Positions 14,865 to 58,880 of a DNA stretch of 64,000 bases are shown here, in pieces; positions within the stretch are counted from its first letter, which is position 1, and each line of letters begins with the position of its first letter. The position numbers were made by a program, and so were the translations under genes. The DNA is from a virus. The stretch is taken from positions 111,956-175,955 of the IMG/VR virus record IMGVR_UViG_3300045988_175607, one strand, 5' to 3'. The notes under the pieces are model-generated. The model saw nothing but the letters and a program-made list of their open reading frames with translations, made no database searches and had not been told where the DNA came from.

Positions 14865-14910
14865 CTTTACTTTTTTATATTTTTATTATATAATATATAT
14901 AGAAAAAATA
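14865..14910 (+). promoter_or_regulatory. conserved phage promoter motif (TATAAT-ATATATAGAAAA family)
   Basis: ttttttatatttttattatataatatatatagaaaaaataag; preceded by GTCCGCAACTTTACT direct repeats (14832-14870). Confidence 0.5.
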
Positions 14911-14933
14911 AGAAAAGGAGGTTTGCGCACTTT

Positions 14934-15374
14934 GTGCGCAAAACTACTATGAATATTAATGATTACCTTCTGACTTCCCTGCGCGATGGTCAGTCTGCTG
15001 AAGACCTCGCTAAGGATCTTTCTGCTGCCCTACAAGTCGCTGAAAAGCAAATTACCGAAGAAAAGCGCCTTTGCGAGCAAAGCTCGCAGCTTAAAACTGA
15101 CCTGTGCGATTGCCTGCGTAAGTATGTGGGTGCTGCGCACCCGCAGACTTACGATAAGCTTGTAGATGTCCACGGCAAAGACTTCACCAATGATGAAATC
15201 ATTGAAATAGTTGATAACACCATAAAAAATACCTCACTTGCGCTTAAGCTTTACGAAAGTATTGCCGATTTTTGCGGCGAAGCCGCAACCACACCAAAGA
15301 CTTGCAGTGAAGAGGCCACGACCACAAATTGGGAAAAGCTTTTTGGCGATTTCTTTAATAAGTATAATTTATAA
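14934..15374 (+). CDS. hypothetical acidic protein (146 aa), GTG start
   Basis: GTG 10 nt after aaaggagg; a stable hairpin tttgcgcactttgtgcgcaaa overlaps the start. Confidence 0.5.
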   Translation: MRKTTMNINDYLLTSLRDGQSAEDLAKDLSAALQVAEKQITEEKRLCEQSSQLKTDLCDCLRKYVGAAHPQTYDKLVDVHGKDFTNDEIIEIVDNTIKNTSLALKLYESIADFCGEAATTPKTCSEEATTTNWEKLFGDFFNKYNL

Positions 15375-15432
15375 AAGCTTTAATTTGTAAAAGCGCAGCT
15401 TTTACAAATTAAAATTAAAATTTTAAATAAAA

Positions 15433-15476
15433 AGAGAAGTTATAAATCTATTATAACTTCTCTTTTTTTATTATAT
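15433..15476 (+). terminator. rho-independent terminator (second of two tandem hairpins after 15374)
   Basis: agagaagttataaatctattataacttctct plus ttttttt; preceded by the ttaatttgtaaaagc/gcttttacaaattaa hairpin. Confidence 0.7.
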
Positions 15477-15614
15477 CCTTTGGGGCGACAGCCCCAAAGC
15501 GACGGGATGTTTTATAATTGTTCAAACGCAGTTTGAACAATTAACTAAAACTCACGGCGACAAAATACCATTATAATTAACATTATCATTATCATTATAA
15601 TTATCATTGTGCTT

Positions 15615-15860
15615 GTAAATACTTGTACAAGCTTGTTACAAACATTTCTCCCTCGCCTAATTAAAAAAGCTTGTATTTTTAATTAAAAAAGCTTGTATAC
15701 AAGCCCACTTTCCTTGTACAAAAATTTTAATTAAAAAAGCTTGTACAATTTTATTATTTTCATCTATAATCAAAAATAAAATTCAGCTTTCTTGCGCTCG
15801 ATTTCTGCTTGCTTACCAATTTCAACTTTGGTACCAACTTGTACAAAATTTGTACAAGCA
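15615..15860. repeat. cluster of TTGTACAA palindromes (at least 6) and three AATTAAAAAAGCTTGTA direct repeats
   Basis: cttgtacaagcttg, gcttgtatacaagcc, ccttgtacaaaaa, gcttgtacaatttt, acttgtacaaaatttgtacaagc; ttaattaaaaaagcttgta x3. Confidence 0.55.
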
Positions 15861-55799: not shown

Positions 55800-55851
55800 A
55801 AAATAAAAAGCTGGAGCAAAAAAGCTCCAGCCTTTCTAAGAGGGGGATAAA

Positions 55852-56103
55852 ATGTCAGATTTTTTTAGTGACCTGACTGAAGCTGAAGAACTTATTTGGG
55901 AAATCTATGGAATAGTACCGCAAGCTTTATGGGATTATTGCAAAGACATGAACAAAAATGCTAATGCTCGACAGCTTGTCCTTGATTCTGTAACTGAATT
56001 GGTTAAAACTTGGGAAGGTAAATATGGTTAGTCTTTAGAATACATTCCAGGCCATTTTCAGAAAAAGGGTCAAGAAAATATTTGTTGCAAACGAAACCAT
56101 TAA
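55852..56103 (+). CDS. small protein with in-frame TAG at 56029-56031 (84 codons)
   Basis: ATG after agagggggataaa; …TWEGKYG-TAG-SLEYIPGHFQKKGQENICCKRNH. Confidence 0.4.
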
Positions 56104-56366
56104 TCATTAAAGGCGGAGGAATTTTTCTCTGCCTTTTATTTTTATATAAAAATATTGTATAATATATATAGAAAAAAGAAAGGGGAATAAAAACGTGGCA
56201 GATTTTTAGAATAATAAAAATGATTTCCAAGAATTTTTATGGGAAGCCTATTGTGTTATCCCAACACTATTATGGAAAAAATATAAAGGTTCCCCAACGC
56301 AAAAAATAATCGCTTGTTTAGAATTTTTAGTAGAAAAATATAAAAAAAATCCGAAAGGTAAAGAAC

Positions 56367-58808
56367 ATGGATATAGACTATAATGATAATCGCTCCTCTA
56401 GCAATCAGCAACGAGATATAATTCTTTCCCCTAATGAATTTGTGTTTGTGCAAAATAGCACCAATGGTATTATACGCACTTATACTGGCCCTATGACTCT
56501 TACTATTAGTGCGCAGGATTATCTTGTGCGTTTTGATGTAAAGACTAAGCAGTTTTATAGTGTTAAGAACCCGCAGGAGGCTAAGCAGCTTTTTGTTTCT
56601 CCTCCTGAAAATTGGTACGTTGTATTGAAGAATCCGACAACCAACGCATCTTTCCCTGAAATTGGTAAGGCTAGTATATCTCCTGAATTGCGCACTGGCC
56701 GCAAAATTAATATAAATGGCCCCACCTCTTTTGCGCTCTATCCTGGCCAGATGGCAAAAGTAATAAAAGGCCACTCTTTGCGTTCAAATCAATATTTACT
56801 TGCGCGCGTTTATGAAGCTGAGAGCGCAAATAACTCAGAAGGTGAAATGCTTGATGCAGAAGGAAATAAGATTACTTCTGAAAAGAATTATGTGAATGGA
56901 CAAATTCTTGTAATAAAAGGTACTGAAGTTTCTTTTTACATTCCTCCCACTGGTATTGAAATACTTCCTATCAATAATGACACTTTTAATGGCTATATTC
57001 GTGAGGCTGTAACTCTTGAACGGCTTGAGTATTGCATTCTCAAGGATGAAGATGGTAATAAGCGTTATGTGCATGGCCCCGAAGTGGTATTTCCTGAGCC
57101 TACTGAACAGTTTGTCTCCAGCCCTAAGGGCGGACTTATCTTTAAAGCCATAGAGCTTTCCCCTATTTCTGGTATTTATGTTAAGGTAATAGCAGAGTAT
57201 ACTGAAGATGATGTAGTTCATCCGGTTGGAGAAGAGCTTTTTATTACCGGTAAAGATTGTATGATTTATTATCCGCGTCCTGAACATGCTATTATAAACT
57301 ATGATGGTAAGATTGTTCATCATGCAATAGCAATACCTGAAGGCGAAGGCCGCTATATAATGAATCGTTTGACTGGTAAGATTGATACTGTGCGTGGTCC
57401 CGCAATGTACCTTCCTGATCCCAGAACTCAAGTGGTGGTAAAACGCAAGCTCACAGCCAGTCAATGCGCTTTGTGGTATCCTGGCAATAATGATGCTTTG
57501 GCTTATAATAATAGTCTTAATGAAAAAGCTACAGAAAAGAATGTTTCTAAAGCAATAACTATGTCATTGACTAATGGTACTATGGCTTCAAATTCTGTAA
57601 CTGATTCGCTTGCTTTCCTTGAAGCTAATGCAAACATTAGTCGTGGTACTTCATACACTAAACCCCGCACTATTACTCTTGATAATAAATATGATGGTGT
57701 AGTATCCATTGATGTATGGACTGGATATGCTGTTGATGTAGTATCTAAAAATGGCAATCGTAAAGTCGTAGTAGGCCCTTGTACTATACTCTTGGATTAT
57801 GATCAGACTCTTGAGGTTCTTGAGCTTAGTACTGGTAAGCCCAAGTCTACAGACGATGTAATTAAAACTGTTTTTTTGCGCCATGAAAACAATAAAATTA
57901 GTGATATTATTAAGATAGAAACTAAAGATTTTGTGCATGGTGCAATAAAGCTTAGTTACTGTGTTAATTTTGATAATTCATATAGTGATAAATGGTTTAA
58001 TATTGACAATTACGTCAAATACCTCTGTGATAGAGAGCGTTCACTTATTAAACGTTTGGCTAAGAATTATACCATTGAAGAGTTTTATCAGAATTATGTA
58101 GATTTGGTAAGAAATCTTGCTATTGATAAAGAGAACGGCTCTGAGGGACGTTTCTTTGAAGAAAATGGTATGCGCGTTTATGACTGTGAAGTTCTTGGTC
58201 TTGATATTGAGAATGAATATGAAGAAATGCTTAATGACCATCAGACAGAAATAATACGCAAGGGCCTTCAGCTTTCTAATGCAACTGCTCAGATTAAACT
58301 TACAGAAGAACTTTCTCGTGTTGAAAAGCTTGAGCATGAGTTGGAAAGCCAGAAACTTATTCATCGTATGAATCTGCAAGAGGTTGAAGCCAAAAGGAAG
58401 CTTGAGATTCAGAATGAGGTTAATCGCTTAAAAGAGGCTGAGACTCTTGCTGAGAAGCAAGCTGAAGCTGATATGCAGGTTCTCATTGATGAAGTCCATG
58501 CAGCTCAAATGTTGCGCGAAAAGAAAACTAAGGATGCTAAGCTTAATTATGAGACTCGCATGGCCAATATTGAAAAGGCAAAGCAAATGGCTTATGCAGA
58601 AGCTGCGGTTAAGATTATTGAGGCTATATCTCCTGATCTGACTGCTGCAATGAACTCTAAGACTAACACTGAAACTGTTGCTGCAATAGCTAAGGCAATT
58701 TCTCCTTATGCGCTGGCTGGCGATAATGAGACTCTTAGCGATGTTATTAATAAGATTACTCGCGGCACTCCTCTTGAGGAAGCTTTGAGTAATATAAAGA
58801 AGGCATAA
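56367..58808 (+). CDS. major vault protein (MVP)-like protein: N-terminal MVP-type repeats, SPFH-like shoulder, long C-terminal coiled coil
   Basis: Repeated R/V-GP..Y.P hairpin motifs (IIRTYTGPMTLTI, YVHGPEVVFPEP, TVRGPAMYLPDP, VVVGPCTILLDYDQ); RVYDCEVLGLDIENEYEEMLNDHQTEIIRKGLQLSNATAQIKLTEE resembles the MVP shoulder; 58300-58800 is heptad-rich. Confidence 0.6.
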   Translation: MDIDYNDNRSSSNQQRDIILSPNEFVFVQNSTNGIIRTYTGPMTLTISAQDYLVRFDVKTKQFYSVKNPQEAKQLFVSPPENWYVVLKNPTTNASFPEIGKASISPELRTGRKININGPTSFALYPGQMAKVIKGHSLRSNQYLLARVYEAESANNSEGEMLDAEGNKITSEKNYVNGQILVIKGTEVSFYIPPTGIEILPINNDTFNGYIREAVTLERLEYCILKDEDGNKRYVHGPEVVFPEPTEQFVSSPKGGLIFKAIELSPISGIYVKVIAEYTEDDVVHPVGEELFITGKDCMIYYPRPEHAIINYDGKIVHHAIAIPEGEGRYIMNRLTGKIDTVRGPAMYLPDPRTQVVVKRKLTASQCALWYPGNNDALAYNNSLNEKATEKNVSKAITMSLTNGTMASNSVTDSLAFLEANANISRGTSYTKPRTITLDNKYDGVVSIDVWTGYAVDVVSKNGNRKVVVGPCTILLDYDQTLEVLELSTGKPKSTDDVIKTVFLRHENNKISDIIKIETKDFVHGAIKLSYCVNFDNSYSDKWFNIDNYVKYLCDRERSLIKRLAKNYTIEEFYQNYVDLVRNLAIDKENGSEGRFFEENGMRVYDCEVLGLDIENEYEEMLNDHQTEIIRKGLQLSNATAQIKLTEELSRVEKLEHELESQKLIHRMNLQEVEAKRKLEIQNEVNRLKEAETLAEKQAEADMQVLIDEVHAAQMLREKKTKDAKLNYETRMANIEKAKQMAYAEAAVKIIEAISPDLTAAMNSKTNTETVAAIAKAISPYALAGDNETLSDVINKITRGTPLEEALSNIKKA

Positions 58809-58810
58809 AA

Positions 58811-58848
58811 AATAGGCGGGAGTAAAAACTCCCGCTTTATTTTTTTAT
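58811..58848 (+). terminator. rho-independent terminator
   Basis: aggcgggagtaaaaactcccgcttt plus T-run. Confidence 0.65.
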
Positions 58849-58880
58849 AAAAATATAATATAATATATATAGAAAATAAA
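58836..58880 (+). promoter_or_regulatory. conserved phage promoter motif
   Basis: tttatttttttataaaaatataaTATAATatatatagaaaataaaaaggg. Confidence 0.5.

Follow-up and report, generated by a model that had tools for sequence, protein, structure and literature searches.

Promoters read by sigma-A are known to carry auxiliary elements beside their hexamers, including a four-region spacer, the Ex/-16 element and the Terrabacteria AT/AG discriminator, and they have a Y-1 R+1 start element 7 nt past the -10 and, in Firmicutes, an AG-rich initial transcribed region (PMC12641261). The early promoters of T4 likewise have a consensus that reaches beyond the hexamers (PMC2988021). The motif analyzed here resembles T4 early promoters in being conserved past the hexamers (PMC2988021), and its terminator-promoter cassettes are comparable to PeSLs (PMC2839356). 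It would take an established design to an extreme and not introduce a novel kind of signal: a large uncultured gut phage with ~27 near-identical putative sigma-A promoters, often fused to terminators, ahead of non-structural genes and tRNAs.

The window (the whole 64-kb stretch of DNA that was analyzed) contained 27 plus-strand copies, from 11935 to 58836, of a 45-nt motif of ~44 bits, TT[G/T]AYT-TTTT..AAAAAATAT-NN-TATAAT-ATATAT-A-[G/T]AAA (Table 1). When the window was searched for TTGATT-N17-TATAAT with at most one mismatch, 34 matches were found, compared with 3.1 ± 1.9 (maximum 8) in shuffled sequences. A position weight matrix (PWM; 45 nt wide, 44 bits, built from 22 copies) gave 27 plus-strand sites above the threshold of 15 bits, with 22 of these scoring 39–57 bits, and the top score in 30 shuffles was 8.2 bits. 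The repeated promoter-like motif of the original prediction was therefore real, and its sigma-A geometry was borne out by both searches (-35/17 bp/-10 in all respects). The strong minus-strand matches were reverse-complement shadows of plus-strand sites, explained by the AT-rich, nearly palindromic make-up of the motif; the sole exception was the weak site 13488(-). With 27 plus-strand sites against this single weak one, the scan showed the strand bias that had been proposed for checking, and the motif was strictly co-oriented with genes. The copies were intergenic. Among the 25 coordinates listed earlier, 22 corresponded within a few nt to strong copies; 26565 and 48015 (true start 48010) had good hexamers but a spacer differing from that of the family, and 36475 (true start 36468) was degenerate. 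The list omitted 11935, 12053, 16561 and 41189, so that the family begins at 11935 and not at ~14.9 kb (14865). The spacer quoted at the time, TTTTATAAAAAATATAA, was exact at 28819 only, the remaining copies being off by 1–4 nt. The overlap of the 46435 copy with the methyltransferase stop codon was correct, and a TGA stop inside TTGAnn was also found at 27423, 30599 and 48010.

Table 1. Motif copies and related sites in the window, with scores on the family PWM.
Position	Strand	Score (bits)	Class	Remarks
11935..11979	+	31.8	motif copy	TTGATT -35, TGT extended -10; faces minus-strand genes; terminator 12032-12052 downstream, hence product probably a short RNA
12053..12097	+	25.7	motif copy	TTTATT -35 right behind hairpin 12032-12052
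13444..13488	-	24.8	weak candidate	sole minus-strand candidate; upstream of minus-strand ORFs
14866..14910	+	43.5	motif copy	behind hairpin 14845-14864; predicted start to gene 14949-15374, 48 nt
16561..16605	+	44.6	motif copy	TTGACT -35; gene 16629-16928
16956..17000	+	53.1	motif copy	behind hairpin 16933-16957; leader 184 nt
20057..20101	+	31.6	motif copy	divergent -35 TAGACA; gene 20116-20412
22063..22107	+	49.4	motif copy	-10 TATTAT; behind hairpin 22029-22056
24044..24088	+	55.5	motif copy	behind hairpin 24009-24045; gene 24110-25945
25954..25998	+	45.5	motif copy	gene 26024-26437
26565..26609	+		weak relative	TTGATA-17-(TGT)TATAAT-ATTTATATATAG, non-family spacer; gene 26626-27426
27423..27467	+	53.3	motif copy	-35 contains TGA stop of 26626-27426
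28819..28863	+	56.3	motif copy	behind hairpin 28785-28817; 316-nt untranslated stretch
30599..30643	+	49.6	motif copy	-35 contains TGA stop of 30294-30602; long leader
34407..34451	+	39.8	motif copy	predicted start to tRNA-Ser, 43 nt
36468..36512	+		degenerate copy	TTGTGT-17-TGgTATAAT-ATTAATATATAAAGG; behind strong hairpin 36434-36467
41189..41233	+	30.6	motif copy	
42840..42884	+	49.5	motif copy	behind terminator-like hairpin 42783-42801
43695..43739	+	56.7	motif copy	in front of tRNA-Ile, tRNA-Gln, tRNA-Thr; read as their promoter
44546..44590	+	53.3	motif copy	tRNA-Leu 150 nt downstream
44884..44928	+	52.7	motif copy	behind hairpin 44845-44871; predicted start to tRNA-Pro, 28 nt
45085..45129	+	49.2	motif copy	gene 45145-45411
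45415..45459	+	41.5	motif copy	TTGACT -35, TGT; 437 nt untranslated, then methyltransferase gene
46435..46479	+	49.3	motif copy	-35 contains TGA stop of methyltransferase 45887-46438
48010..48054	+	16.3	generic consensus sigma-A promoter	TTGACA-17-TGT-TATAAT; precedes tRNA-CUA suppressor
48231..48275	+	41.9	motif copy	behind hairpin 48206-48232
51641..51685	+	51.8	motif copy	behind hairpin 51617-51642
55250..55294	+	48.9	motif copy	behind hairpin 55229-55251
56135..56179	+	55.9	motif copy	behind hairpin 56109-56136
58836..58880	+	56.3	motif copy, last	behind hairpin 58814-58837

Judged by sequence, the conserved blocks all have counterparts among the known elements of sigma-70/sigma-A promoters: the -35 hexamer, the 17-bp spacer, the Gram-positive -16 TRTG/TGn, the -10 hexamer, the AT-rich discriminator, the pyrimidine-purine start and the A/G-rich leader. 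The spacer consists of a T-tract and then an A-tract, and its order (T-tract, low-signal region, AT-tract, G/Ex region) is like that of Firmicutes promoters, as are the AT/AG discriminator and the AG-rich initial transcribed region (PMC12641261). TATG, a TRTG/TGn element, occupied positions 19–22 of half the clade sites. The seventh nt past TATAAT, position 36, was a purine in 99% of the sites and was preceded by T in 95%, in agreement with the YRR/YRY start element (PMC12641261). The -35s other than TTGATT drifted to TTGACT or TTGACA, in the window as well as at 307 non-seed sites outside it, among which TTGATT was counted 166 times, TTGACT 39 times and TTGACA 22 times, with G at position 3 in 91%. 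The spacer and the 12 nt past the -10 had been thought far more conserved than sigma-70 needs, an argument that was not supported; those positions coincide with the described auxiliary elements (PMC12641261). When sites were chosen by their hexamers only, a set that also takes in promoters outside the motif family, the extra information dropped to ~5–8 bits each for the spacer and the downstream region, which means that part of the 44 bits stems from the definition of the family.

The predicted start site, an A seven nt past TATAAT, lay 23–56 nt ahead of a start codon or tRNA gene in 17 of 29 sites of the window. Among 379 sites of the related loci, 66% had a same-strand ORF preceded by a Shine-Dalgarno sequence starting 12–70 nt downstream, compared with 3% on the opposite strand, and start codons lay a median of 27 nt (interquartile range 25–30) past the start site. 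tRNA genes followed 32 of 433 clade sites. The TTTATT -35 is also the U-tract of an upstream terminator hairpin: a hairpin of at least -10 kcal/mol strength was found directly upstream of 10 of the 11 TTTAYT-type copies, against 3 of the 17 TTGAxx copies (Fisher p = 2.7e-4), and the same hairpins were recovered by an independent terminator scan.

The motif was absent from the packaging and structural operons of the relatives. Across 80 terminase-centred loci (1.35 Mb) the terminase strand had no match, all 22 matches being divergent and upstream, and 18 kb of structural operon in four motif-bearing loci had none where 10.4 were expected (Poisson P = 3e-5). No copy followed 58836 as far as window-equivalent position 68.8 kb. 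The window genes behind the motif were almost free of recoded TAG codons, with 0.075 TAG per 100 codons versus 1.1 in the downstream genes at 60.5–63.9 kb (p = 4.5e-8), which have no copy ahead; the terminases of the relatives had 1.2–2.5. The structural operon of the relatives also begins with a sigma-A-type promoter, and a second, heterogeneous set of sigma-A-type promoters occurs in other blocks of the same genome, a hint that the family-specific positions could carry class information. On the best reading, the cassettes probably serve early/middle genes.

The motif is common to hundreds of related phages. Its exact 26-base core was present in >118 IMG/VR stretches and 31 MAG contigs, and the PWM found 505 matches in 1.3 Mb of related gut and rumen phage contigs with a G+C content of 24–50%. 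The only hint of a host was that motif-bearing contigs were binned in Clostridia and Bacilli MAGs. The cultured relative, Enterococcus phage H1 (terminase 44–49% and exonuclease 42% identical), has ~50 promoters of the same architecture in its complete 138-kb genome, in non-structural regions only. The A-tract/TAT spacer was kept at 90–95%, and spacer information was 10.0 bits versus 6.6 in H1; conservation of this spacer also greatly exceeds that of ordinary host promoters, so that a specific reader is conceivable.

Taken as sequence, the copies of the motif probably constitute one family of sigma-A (sigma-70-type) promoters of very high strength, and we infer that the host RNA polymerase holoenzyme is what reads them. 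Each copy would be a compact expression cassette, optionally opened by an intrinsic terminator hairpin (the T-rich -35 region serving as its U-tract) and continuing with a -35 TTGAYT, a 17-bp spacer of T-tract, A-tract and TAT(G), the last acting as Gram-positive -16 TRTG/extended -10, and a -10 TATAAT. A 6-nt AT-only discriminator, a T(-1) A(+1) G/T(+2) start element and a short, A/G-rich, unstructured leader would then lead to a Shine-Dalgarno sequence and a start codon ~27 nt past the start site, or to a tRNA gene. With such cassettes, the genome's non-structural part would fall into many independent, strongly transcribed units, each insulated by the upstream terminator. ORFans, tRNAs, radical-SAM genes, genes of nucleotide and RNA metabolism and probably small RNAs are located there. 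Clade-wide purifying selection holding every auxiliary element at its optimum probably accounts for the conservation past the hexamers, and on this best reading an extra phage factor reading the spacer or leader would not be needed.

It is possible, if doubtful, that a clade-conserved phage factor reads the family-specific positions (T-tract/A-tract/TAT spacer, ATATAT discriminator, AGAAA leader) of a sigma-A-based promoter. Such a factor might activate transcription, act as a shut-off repressor, appropriate sigma, modify RNAP or bind RNA at the 5' leader that the transcripts share, and the motif would in that case define a (middle) class with its own timing. In its favor, the spacer and leader are kept at 90–95% among phages whose proteins are mostly 30–60% identical, the window has two block-wise promoter flavors (generic TTGACA/TGn versus the AT-only family) and H1 is split likewise, the downstream box (ATAGAAAGTTAA and similar) recurs in H1, a distant relative, and genes within or next to the region encode several small DNA-binding proteins (winged-helix, AbrB-like and LuxR-type). 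However, no activator is needed where the -10 is perfect, the -35 near consensus and the spacer 17 bp long, all conserved blocks match known RNAP-contacted or strength-modulating elements, the T-run/A-run junction moves 1–3 nt from copy to copy, unlike a base-specific operator, and a Ruminococcaceae MAG contig of 50% G+C has a perfect copy beside an integrase and a resolvase, with no homologue of the window's genes in the 8 kb examined. The only candidate named, the ECF-like sigma proposed at 15770-16300, was rejected as a sigma: it is an HTH protein of LuxR/GerE type, no sigma-2 domain being detectable by Pfam, PHROGs or fold search. This ORF (176 aa only with TAG read-through) matched only HTH/sigma region-4-like models; its predicted fold matched LuxR/GerE/NarL HTH domains locally and ECF sigmas at a probability of 0.11–0.30 (rmsd 16–21 Å), and it had only 38 homologues and one match in the 1.3 Mb of motif-bearing loci, so it is not clade-wide. 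With no sigma-2 domain in that protein, and with bipartite hexamers that match and drift toward the sigma-A consensus, a promoter of a phage-encoded sigma or RNA polymerase (like SPO1 gp28, T7-like or phiKZ/AR9-type) is very improbable, although hyper-conservation over ~40 bp resembles phage-RNAP promoters. The DFDGD (beta-prime) signature was absent from the window, ~1.3 Mb of related sequence and the H1 genome (~1.5 Mb together), and H1 has no annotated RNAP or sigma; the sequence examined was 64 kb (plus 4.8 kb) of the ~176-kb genome, which means that a phage sigma, an RNAP or a factor binding RNAP could sit elsewhere in it.

A replication, packaging or other DNA-level signal had also been suggested, and AT-rich repeats can act as origins or protein-binding arrays; this reading is already contradicted by orientation and spacing and is almost certainly wrong, given 27 dispersed, strand-locked copies at gene starts, a fixed 23–30 nt to start codons, placement directly ahead of tRNA genes, terminator fusion and absence from structural operons. 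That the non-hexamer conservation is mainly historical seems improbable. The motif would then be a PeSL-like mobile cassette (PMC2839356), spread and homogenized through duplication, gene conversion and recombination, both among its copies and among co-infecting phages, with the extra positions hitch-hiking and not selected. The 28819 copy is indeed duplicated in tandem in a close relative (L150; sites 4198 and 4299), a cassette replacement relative to another (L137) ends at the 56135 copy, positions 5–8, 12–13 and 22–23 are degenerate with contig-specific flavors, and the copies are concentrated in an ORFan-rich region without homologues in other loci. Yet site identity was 0.785 between loci against a slightly higher 0.812 within a locus, the most conserved non-hexamer positions had no within-locus excess, two of four indels relative to close relatives lay away from motif copies, and retention across 24–50% G+C and 30–60% protein identity calls for selection or an implausible exchange rate. 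With the copies read as sigma-A promoters, their ~45–75 bp of near-identity in direct orientation among related phages would, as a by-product, offer homology for PeSL-like duplication, loss and exchange of cassettes.

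The hexamer pair TTGATT-N17-TATAAT, with at most one mismatch, was found 34 times in the window, against 3.1 ± 1.9 matches in shuffled sequences. A 45-nt position weight matrix (PWM) was built from 22 copies (44 bits), and scanning the window with it gave 27 plus-strand sites above 15 bits within 47 kb, 22 of which scored 39-57 bits; in 30 shuffles the score never exceeded 8.2 bits. The minus-strand hits were reverse-complement shadows of the plus-strand sites, except for a weak site at 13488. The original prediction of a strand-biased motif repeated through this region was borne out, given that 22 of its 25 coordinates are strong copies and that 27 plus-strand sites stand against one weak minus-strand site. 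The other three coordinates fared less well: 26565 and 48010 share only the hexamers and have another spacer, and 36468 is degenerate. Four copies (11935, 12053, 16561 and 41189) had been overlooked, so that the family begins at 11.9 kb and not, as had been proposed, at about 14.9 kb. In a neutral consensus scan the copies were among the top-ranking sigma-70-type sites, with matches at 10-12 of 12 hexamer positions, and terminator-like hairpins were seen just upstream of several of them.

The consensus of the family is TT(G/T)A(T/C)T-TTTT(w3)AAAAA(A/T)TAT-NN-TATAAT-ATATAT-A-(G/T)AAA(A/G)(T/A)AA. The spacer is 17 bp in all family copies, the -35 is TTGATT, TTGACT, TTGACA or TTTATT, and the -10 is TATAAT in 25 of the 27 window copies and in 295 of 307 further sites in related contigs, from which the search seeds were left out. 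Among these 307 clade sites the -35 was TTGATT in 166, TTGACT in 39 and TTGACA in 22, with G at its third position in 91%. Motif positions 21-22 are T and G (G in 49%), which gives TATGnTATAAT, the Gram-positive -16 TRTG or extended -10 element. The -16 TRTG element is a feature of Gram-positive promoters. Position 36, the predicted start, is A in 79% and G in 20% (purine in 99%), and is preceded by T at position 35 in 95% of these sites; a purine about 7 nt after the -10, with a pyrimidine before it, would match the sigma-A start element. The -35 is near TTGACA, the -10 near TATAAT, and the two lie 17 ± 1 bp apart, as in sigma-70/sigma-A housekeeping promoters.

The same promoter layout was described in 2025, in a survey of 49 bacteria with mapped start sites (PMC12641261). 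The surveyed spacer has four regions (a T-rich tract, a low-signal region, a second AT tract and a G/Ex region), the Terrabacteria discriminator is AT- or AG-rich, the 'start' element Y-1 R+1 (Y/R)+2 has its optimum centred 7-8 bp after the -10, the initial transcribed region of Firmicutes is AG-rich, and spacer composition alone shifted promoter strength up to 600-fold (PMC12641261). The blocks of the motif match this layout, and thus each conserved block corresponds to a known housekeeping-promoter element: the motif shares with Firmicutes sigma-A promoters the -35, the four-region 17-bp spacer, the Ex/TRTG, the -10, the AT/AG discriminator, the YRR/YRY start 7 nt after the -10 and the AG-rich initial transcribed region. 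In cellular promoters, however, the auxiliary elements are weak statistical preferences, whereas in the motif all of them are near-invariant at once (~44 bits).

The exact 26-base core AAAAATAT-NN-TATAATATATATAGAAAA occurred in more than 118 IMG/VR stretches among the matches listed, many on contigs of 100-400 kb, and in 31 genome-collection stretches, all of them MAG contigs and none from isolates, several being 150-176 kb long. The core-bearing MAG bins were mostly Clostridia or Bacilli, from the guts of human, rabbit, yak, sheep, buffalo and cattle. In 1.3 Mb of these loci, 505 PWM sites were found, with a near-uniform strand within each locus and a local G+C of 24-50%. Proteins of the motif-bearing loci are 30-60% identical to those of the window, two close relatives excepted, and yet the sites are 78.5% identical between loci and 81.2% within a locus, with a small excess at degenerate positions, both figures being inflated by the PWM-based choice of sites. 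Since identity between loci approaches that within a locus despite such protein divergence, the motif is held by clade-wide selection, and within-genome homogenisation of the copies is probably a minor effect. When sites were picked by hexamers alone, a set diluted by non-family promoters, the extra information was 5-8 bits in the spacer and 7-8 bits downstream.

The window corresponds, as reverse complement, to the initial 64 kb of a ~176-kb metagenome contig, and contigs of 175,955-176,222 bp were recovered in several independent assemblies. Megablast of 20 kb of the window against deposited phage genomes returned no near match, tblastn of a 611-aa protein no match, and an exact-sequence lookup of the PcfJ-like protein no record; blastn of one cassette against INPHARED phages also gave no match, probably an effect of the low-complexity filter. 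In a full-text literature search the 14-mer core TATAATATATATAG was present in none of the papers searched, the other matches being shorter AT strings on unrelated topics. In the published TAG-recoded (code-15) gut phage Phass-1 (OQ749652.1; exonuclease 26% identical), one weak motif site was found in the ORFan-rich initial 50 kb (1-50000), so that code-15 phages do not carry the motif in general. Consensus sigma-A promoters were nearly absent from this stretch (4 hexamer matches), in contrast to Enterococcus phage H1 and the motif clade. A perfect 45-nt copy (58.8 bits) was found on the minus strand at about 904-948 of locus L139, on contig CACYLY010000017.1 (an 86-kb Ruminococcaceae MAG contig, 42-57% G+C). 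It adjoins a tyrosine integrase, a serine resolvase and a VanZ gene and is followed by two small ORFs, one with an HTH. This copy could belong to a mobile element or satellite that uses the phage-type promoter, or could be a hint of the host; the HTH gene behind it showed no similarity to the winged-helix proteins of the window, of which it had been considered a possible homologue.

Of the 28 copies tested, 13 carry a hairpin that reaches -10 kcal/mol or lower and ends at the -35 (14 of 29 if the degenerate 36468 is counted), whereas 11% of random 47-nt windows reached this value, and an independent terminator scan agreed with the hairpins at the copies. Hairpins preceded 10 of 11 TTTAYT-type copies versus 3 of 17 TTGAxx copies (Fisher p = 2.7e-4). 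Since the hairpins go with one form of the -35, the motif's T-run (TTTATTTTTT) acts as the U-tract of the terminator, and this double role accounts for the loss of the -35 G in about half of the window copies, while 91% keep it elsewhere. The auxiliary elements presumably offset the weaker -35 of the TTTAYT-type copies, which is consistent with the surveyed spacer effects (PMC12641261). A strong sigma-70-like promoter joined to a stable stem-loop is thus found repeatedly, as in PeSL-type cassettes.

The copies lie between genes or, at most, overlap the stop codon of the preceding gene. At 27423, 30599, 46435 and 48010, the preceding gene's TGA stop falls within the TTGAnn -35 of the next promoter, which includes the overlap with the methyltransferase stop codon originally noticed at 46435; genome packing is very tight at these four places. 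The predicted start lies 23-56 nt ahead of a start codon or tRNA gene in 17 of 29 cases, and a copy or variant stands directly in front of tRNA-Ser, the Ile-Gln-Thr cluster, tRNA-Pro and the CUA suppressor. In related contigs, an ORF preceded by a Shine-Dalgarno sequence followed on the same strand at 66% of 379 sites versus 3% on the opposite strand, with a median of 27 nt from predicted start to ATG (interquartile range 25-30), and tRNA genes lay downstream of 32 of 433 clade sites. The motif is therefore upstream of genes and co-oriented with them, as sigma-A promoters are, and the narrow distance to the ATG, together with the same-strand ORFs, indicates a unit in which promoter, leader and ribosome-binding site keep a fixed distance from one another. 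No convincing ORF was seen in the 150-440 nt downstream of six copies, and a terminator follows the copy at 11935 after about 80 nt. Such ORF-poor stretches may encode phage small RNAs; Rfam at the gathering threshold matched only tRNAs in the window, and no small RNA.

Coordinates of ORF-poor, recoded and other features (window positions unless a related locus is named)
Feature	Coordinates	Remarks
ORF-poor stretches after motif copies	28854-29170; 30634-31013; 45450-45887; 11970-12052	80-440 nt, some with terminators at the end
TAG recoding and suppressor loci	48080-48154; 60556-63838; terminase genes of related loci L096, L016, L107	
Repeated palindromes TGATAA-N4-TTATCA	1355-1400; 1588-1631; 4035-4074	
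Back-to-back TTGACA promoters	2072-2132	perfect 23-nt inverted repeat
Generic consensus promoters	387; 3313; 3652	
DUF2828/DUF7788 protein, RNA ligase, AAA_33 kinase + metallophosphatase	46526-48013; 53688-55085; 59372-60447	near the vault-like protein
Adjacent pairs of large genes	31604-34244; 38321-41114; 19380-22396 of related locus L001 (window-equivalent 65746-68762)	420-493 aa

The motif is restricted to one class of genes. In 80 terminase-centred clade loci (1.35 Mb), no family motif was found on the terminase strand, all 22 matches being upstream and divergent, and the motif was absent between 2 kb before and 12 kb after the terminase start. In the packaging/structural operon, covering 18 kb in four motif-bearing loci, 0 copies were found versus 10.4 expected (P = 3e-5); the structural-operon results come from relatives' loci. 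In 64 of 80 loci this operon has a single conserved sigma-A-type promoter of its own (TTGACA-17-TGnTATAAT, with another spacer), located about 2.3 kb before the terminase; beyond it, that strand is almost free of other promoter-like sites (5 matches in all) over at least 12 kb. The spacer of this promoter has an A-tract and then a T-tract, the reverse of the family motif, and the promoter stands back-to-back with a family copy 75-165 bp away among the related loci L159-L238, and also in L107, L016, L148 and L074.

The distribution of TAG codons follows the same division. The clade terminases contain 7-15 TAGs per ~600 codons, and in the window the frequency is 0.075 per 100 codons in the genes at 14.9-60.45 kb versus 1.1 at 60.5-63.9 kb (p = 4.5e-8). 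No motif copy precedes the latter block, in whose PhoH gene (62996-63838) five TAGs lie in frame, and none occurs from 58.9 to 68.8 kb. The long ORFs of the window end in TAA (45), TGA (21) or TAG (4), and one of its nine tRNAs has a CUA anticodon. TAG is a sense codon in this phage, probably for Gln, because CAG is rare where TAG is frequent. The clade loci (1.3 Mb) contain 13 CUA and 2 UCA suppressor tRNAs among 333 tRNAs. A 'late-flavour' promoter common to the suppressor tRNA and the structural operon was considered but rejected, since the promoters of 16 suppressor tRNAs were mixed (4 family, 3 generic, the rest none). In a published model, late genes are recoded and early genes are still readable in the host code (bioRxiv 10.1101/2021.08.26.457843). 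The motif-driven genes are nearly TAG-free, and the structural operon of relatives and the PhoH block are TAG-rich, which fits this model; from these patterns of class restriction, we infer an early or middle timing for the motif-driven genes.

No homologues of the 12-22 kb genes were found in the other clade loci, and the copies lie in plastic ORFan-rich regions and not in structural modules, as PeSL-type cassettes do. Compared with relatives of 85-89% identity (L150, L137 and L088), four indels were found, two of which touch a copy: a tandem duplication of 28819 and a cassette replacement ending at 56135. The other two have no relation to the motif. This suggests PeSL-like shuffling at the copies, for which there is precedent (PMC2839356, PMC4122927). 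With the PeSL cassettes of T4-type phages (PMC2839356, PMC4122927), the family shares repeated composites of a strong sigma-70-like promoter and a stem-loop terminator, an intergenic position with a Shine-Dalgarno sequence and start codon at the end, the preference for plastic ORFan-rich regions over conserved structural modules, and duplications or indels at copies between close relatives, seen here for two of the four indels. PeSLs, however, belong to the T4-type lineage, whereas the motif phages are uncultured, related to Enterococcus phages H1 and EF1 and probably infect Firmicutes. In PeSLs the hairpin usually lies between or over the hexamers; here it is upstream and its U-tract is the -35 region. 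Unlike in PeSLs, spacer, discriminator and leader are conserved and common to a deep clade. The cassette is therefore an analogue of PeSLs and not a member, differing in sequence, hairpin position and phage lineage.

The early promoters of T5 and SPO1 are grouped with those of T4 as phage promoters used by the host RNA polymerase (RNAP). The T4 early promoters ('uber' UP/-35/TGn/-10; PMC2988021) likewise use host sigma-70/sigma-A RNAP, match all known elements and carry extra consensus beyond the hexamers, which has been read as optimisation to out-compete host promoters. Unlike them, the motif has no conserved UP-like block upstream of the -35 but a terminator, its extra consensus lies in the spacer, discriminator and start region, its early timing is deduced, and no Alt-like modifier was identified for the motif phage. 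The distant cultured relatives are the ~140-kb Enterococcus phages H1 and EF1 (exonuclease 42% identical), and the H1 terminase is 44-49% identical to those of three motif-bearing IMG/VR loci (L016, L096 and L107). In H1 (OP534061.1), some 50 TTGAnn-17-TGnTATAAT promoters are present, only in non-structural regions and tRNA clusters; their -35 is followed by a T-run, and their conserved downstream box (TAATTATAAAGTTAAA / ATAGAAAGTTAA) resembles that of the motif. The H1 spacer, however, is much less uniform (6.6 versus 10.0 bits; total 29 versus 34.5 bits by the same procedure), and H1 has no TAG recoding. The motif is an analogue of T4 early promoters and PeSLs in an unrelated uncultured lineage.

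As to what reads the motif, the sequence and spacing of the hexamers and the way in which they vary favour the housekeeping sigma of a Firmicutes host; the hexamers are those of the housekeeping consensus, and do not differ from it as those of an alternative sigma would. Promoters of phage RNAPs (T7-like, N4, phiKZ/AR9) are also long near-invariant sequences repeated through a genome, but they are without the sigma-70 -35/17/-10 layout and depend on a phage polymerase gene, whereas the motif has the canonical sigma-A layout. A motif search of the window, of 1.3 Mb of clade loci and of complete H1, translated in all six frames, found no multisubunit RNAP signature ([NA]ADFDGD or DFDGD), and the annotation of H1 lists no RNAP and no sigma. 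The ECF-like sigma originally proposed at 15770-16300 did not hold up as a reader of the motif. This minus-strand region gives a 176-aa protein only if a TAG is read through, and it matched only HTH and sigma region-4-like models, not the sigma-2 plus sigma-4 combination of an ECF sigma. Its AlphaFold model (pLDDT 72) gave no match at E <= 0.001 in a fold search; LuxR/GerE/NarL HTH domains matched locally at ~1 Å rmsd, and ECF sigmas at a probability of 0.11-0.30 with an rmsd of 16-21 Å. With a LuxR/GerE-like HTH and a novel helical N-domain only, the protein appears transcription-regulator-like, without demonstrable sigma identity. Given that it has 38 homologues in 5.8 billion proteins and one match in 1.3 Mb of motif-bearing loci, its family is too narrowly distributed to explain a clade-wide motif.

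Alternatively, the family-specific parts (T-tract/A-tract/TAT spacer, ATATAT discriminator and AGAAA 5' leader) might be the recognition site of a clade-conserved phage factor, which would act on the DNA, on RNAP or on the shared 5' RNA end. Candidate proteins encoded in the window are the 176-aa LuxR-type protein, two winged-helix proteins (5625-5993 and 8357-8716) and an AbrB-like protein (7739-8047). The A-tract/TAT of the spacer and the first four transcribed bases are indeed more uniform than in H1 or any cellular promoter set. Moreover, a second, heterogeneous sigma-A-type set (TTGACA, GC-containing spacers, TGn) occupies 0-11.7 kb and a few other places in the window, and H1 has the same block-wise promoter split; two such sets are compatible with two regulatory classes told apart by the family-specific positions. 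However, the promoter sequence needs no activator, the T-run/A-run junction moves between copies, and no candidate factor tracks the motif, and for these reasons we consider such a factor unlikely. If it did exist, a dedicated 'sigma-A plus factor' promoter class would serve the standard-code genes of hundreds of uncultured phages from gut and rumen. This class would stand apart both from the control region's generic sigma-A promoters and from the late operon with its TAG recoding, and the shared cassette would also be a universal linker for gene exchange across the clade.

Recognition by the host housekeeping sigma would involve no new transcription mechanism, and comparable sets are known in T4, T5, SPO1 and the composite PeSLs; what stands out is the depth of conservation, the -35 doubling as a terminator tail and the clean separation from the recoded late operon. 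For annotation, the PWM marks transcription-unit starts and a non-structural, probably early or middle, gene class in an uncultured clade with ~100-400 kb genomes, often TAG-recoded, from human and animal guts, in which most genes are unannotated. For synthetic biology, the cassette is a natural design of a compact, insulated, strong expression unit for low-GC Firmicutes, its parts being a terminator U-tract that doubles as -35, an optimal spacer, a discriminator, a start and a 27-nt leader.

Several other features of the region were observed. Positions 1-4400 of the window are almost ORF-free and, with the palindromes and promoters listed in the table, look like an operator/promoter array or an origin. 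In the family of the 176-aa LuxR-type HTH protein (P0001-P0038), the helical N-domain is conserved, the linker is variable and of low complexity, and the C-terminal F-x-F is invariant; the C-terminus resembles a short docking peptide. An 813-aa protein (56367-58808) has a major-vault-protein shoulder and repeat domains and is 50-71% identical in 11 other clade loci; together with the ligase and kinase genes near it, it would make an RNA-repair or ribonucleoprotein-like set, unusual for a phage. Three adjacent pairs of large genes were also found, and the four genes of the in-window pairs match Pfam Radical_SAM, above the curated cut-off only at 31604-32866; CxxxCxxC motifs are present in the pair beyond the window.
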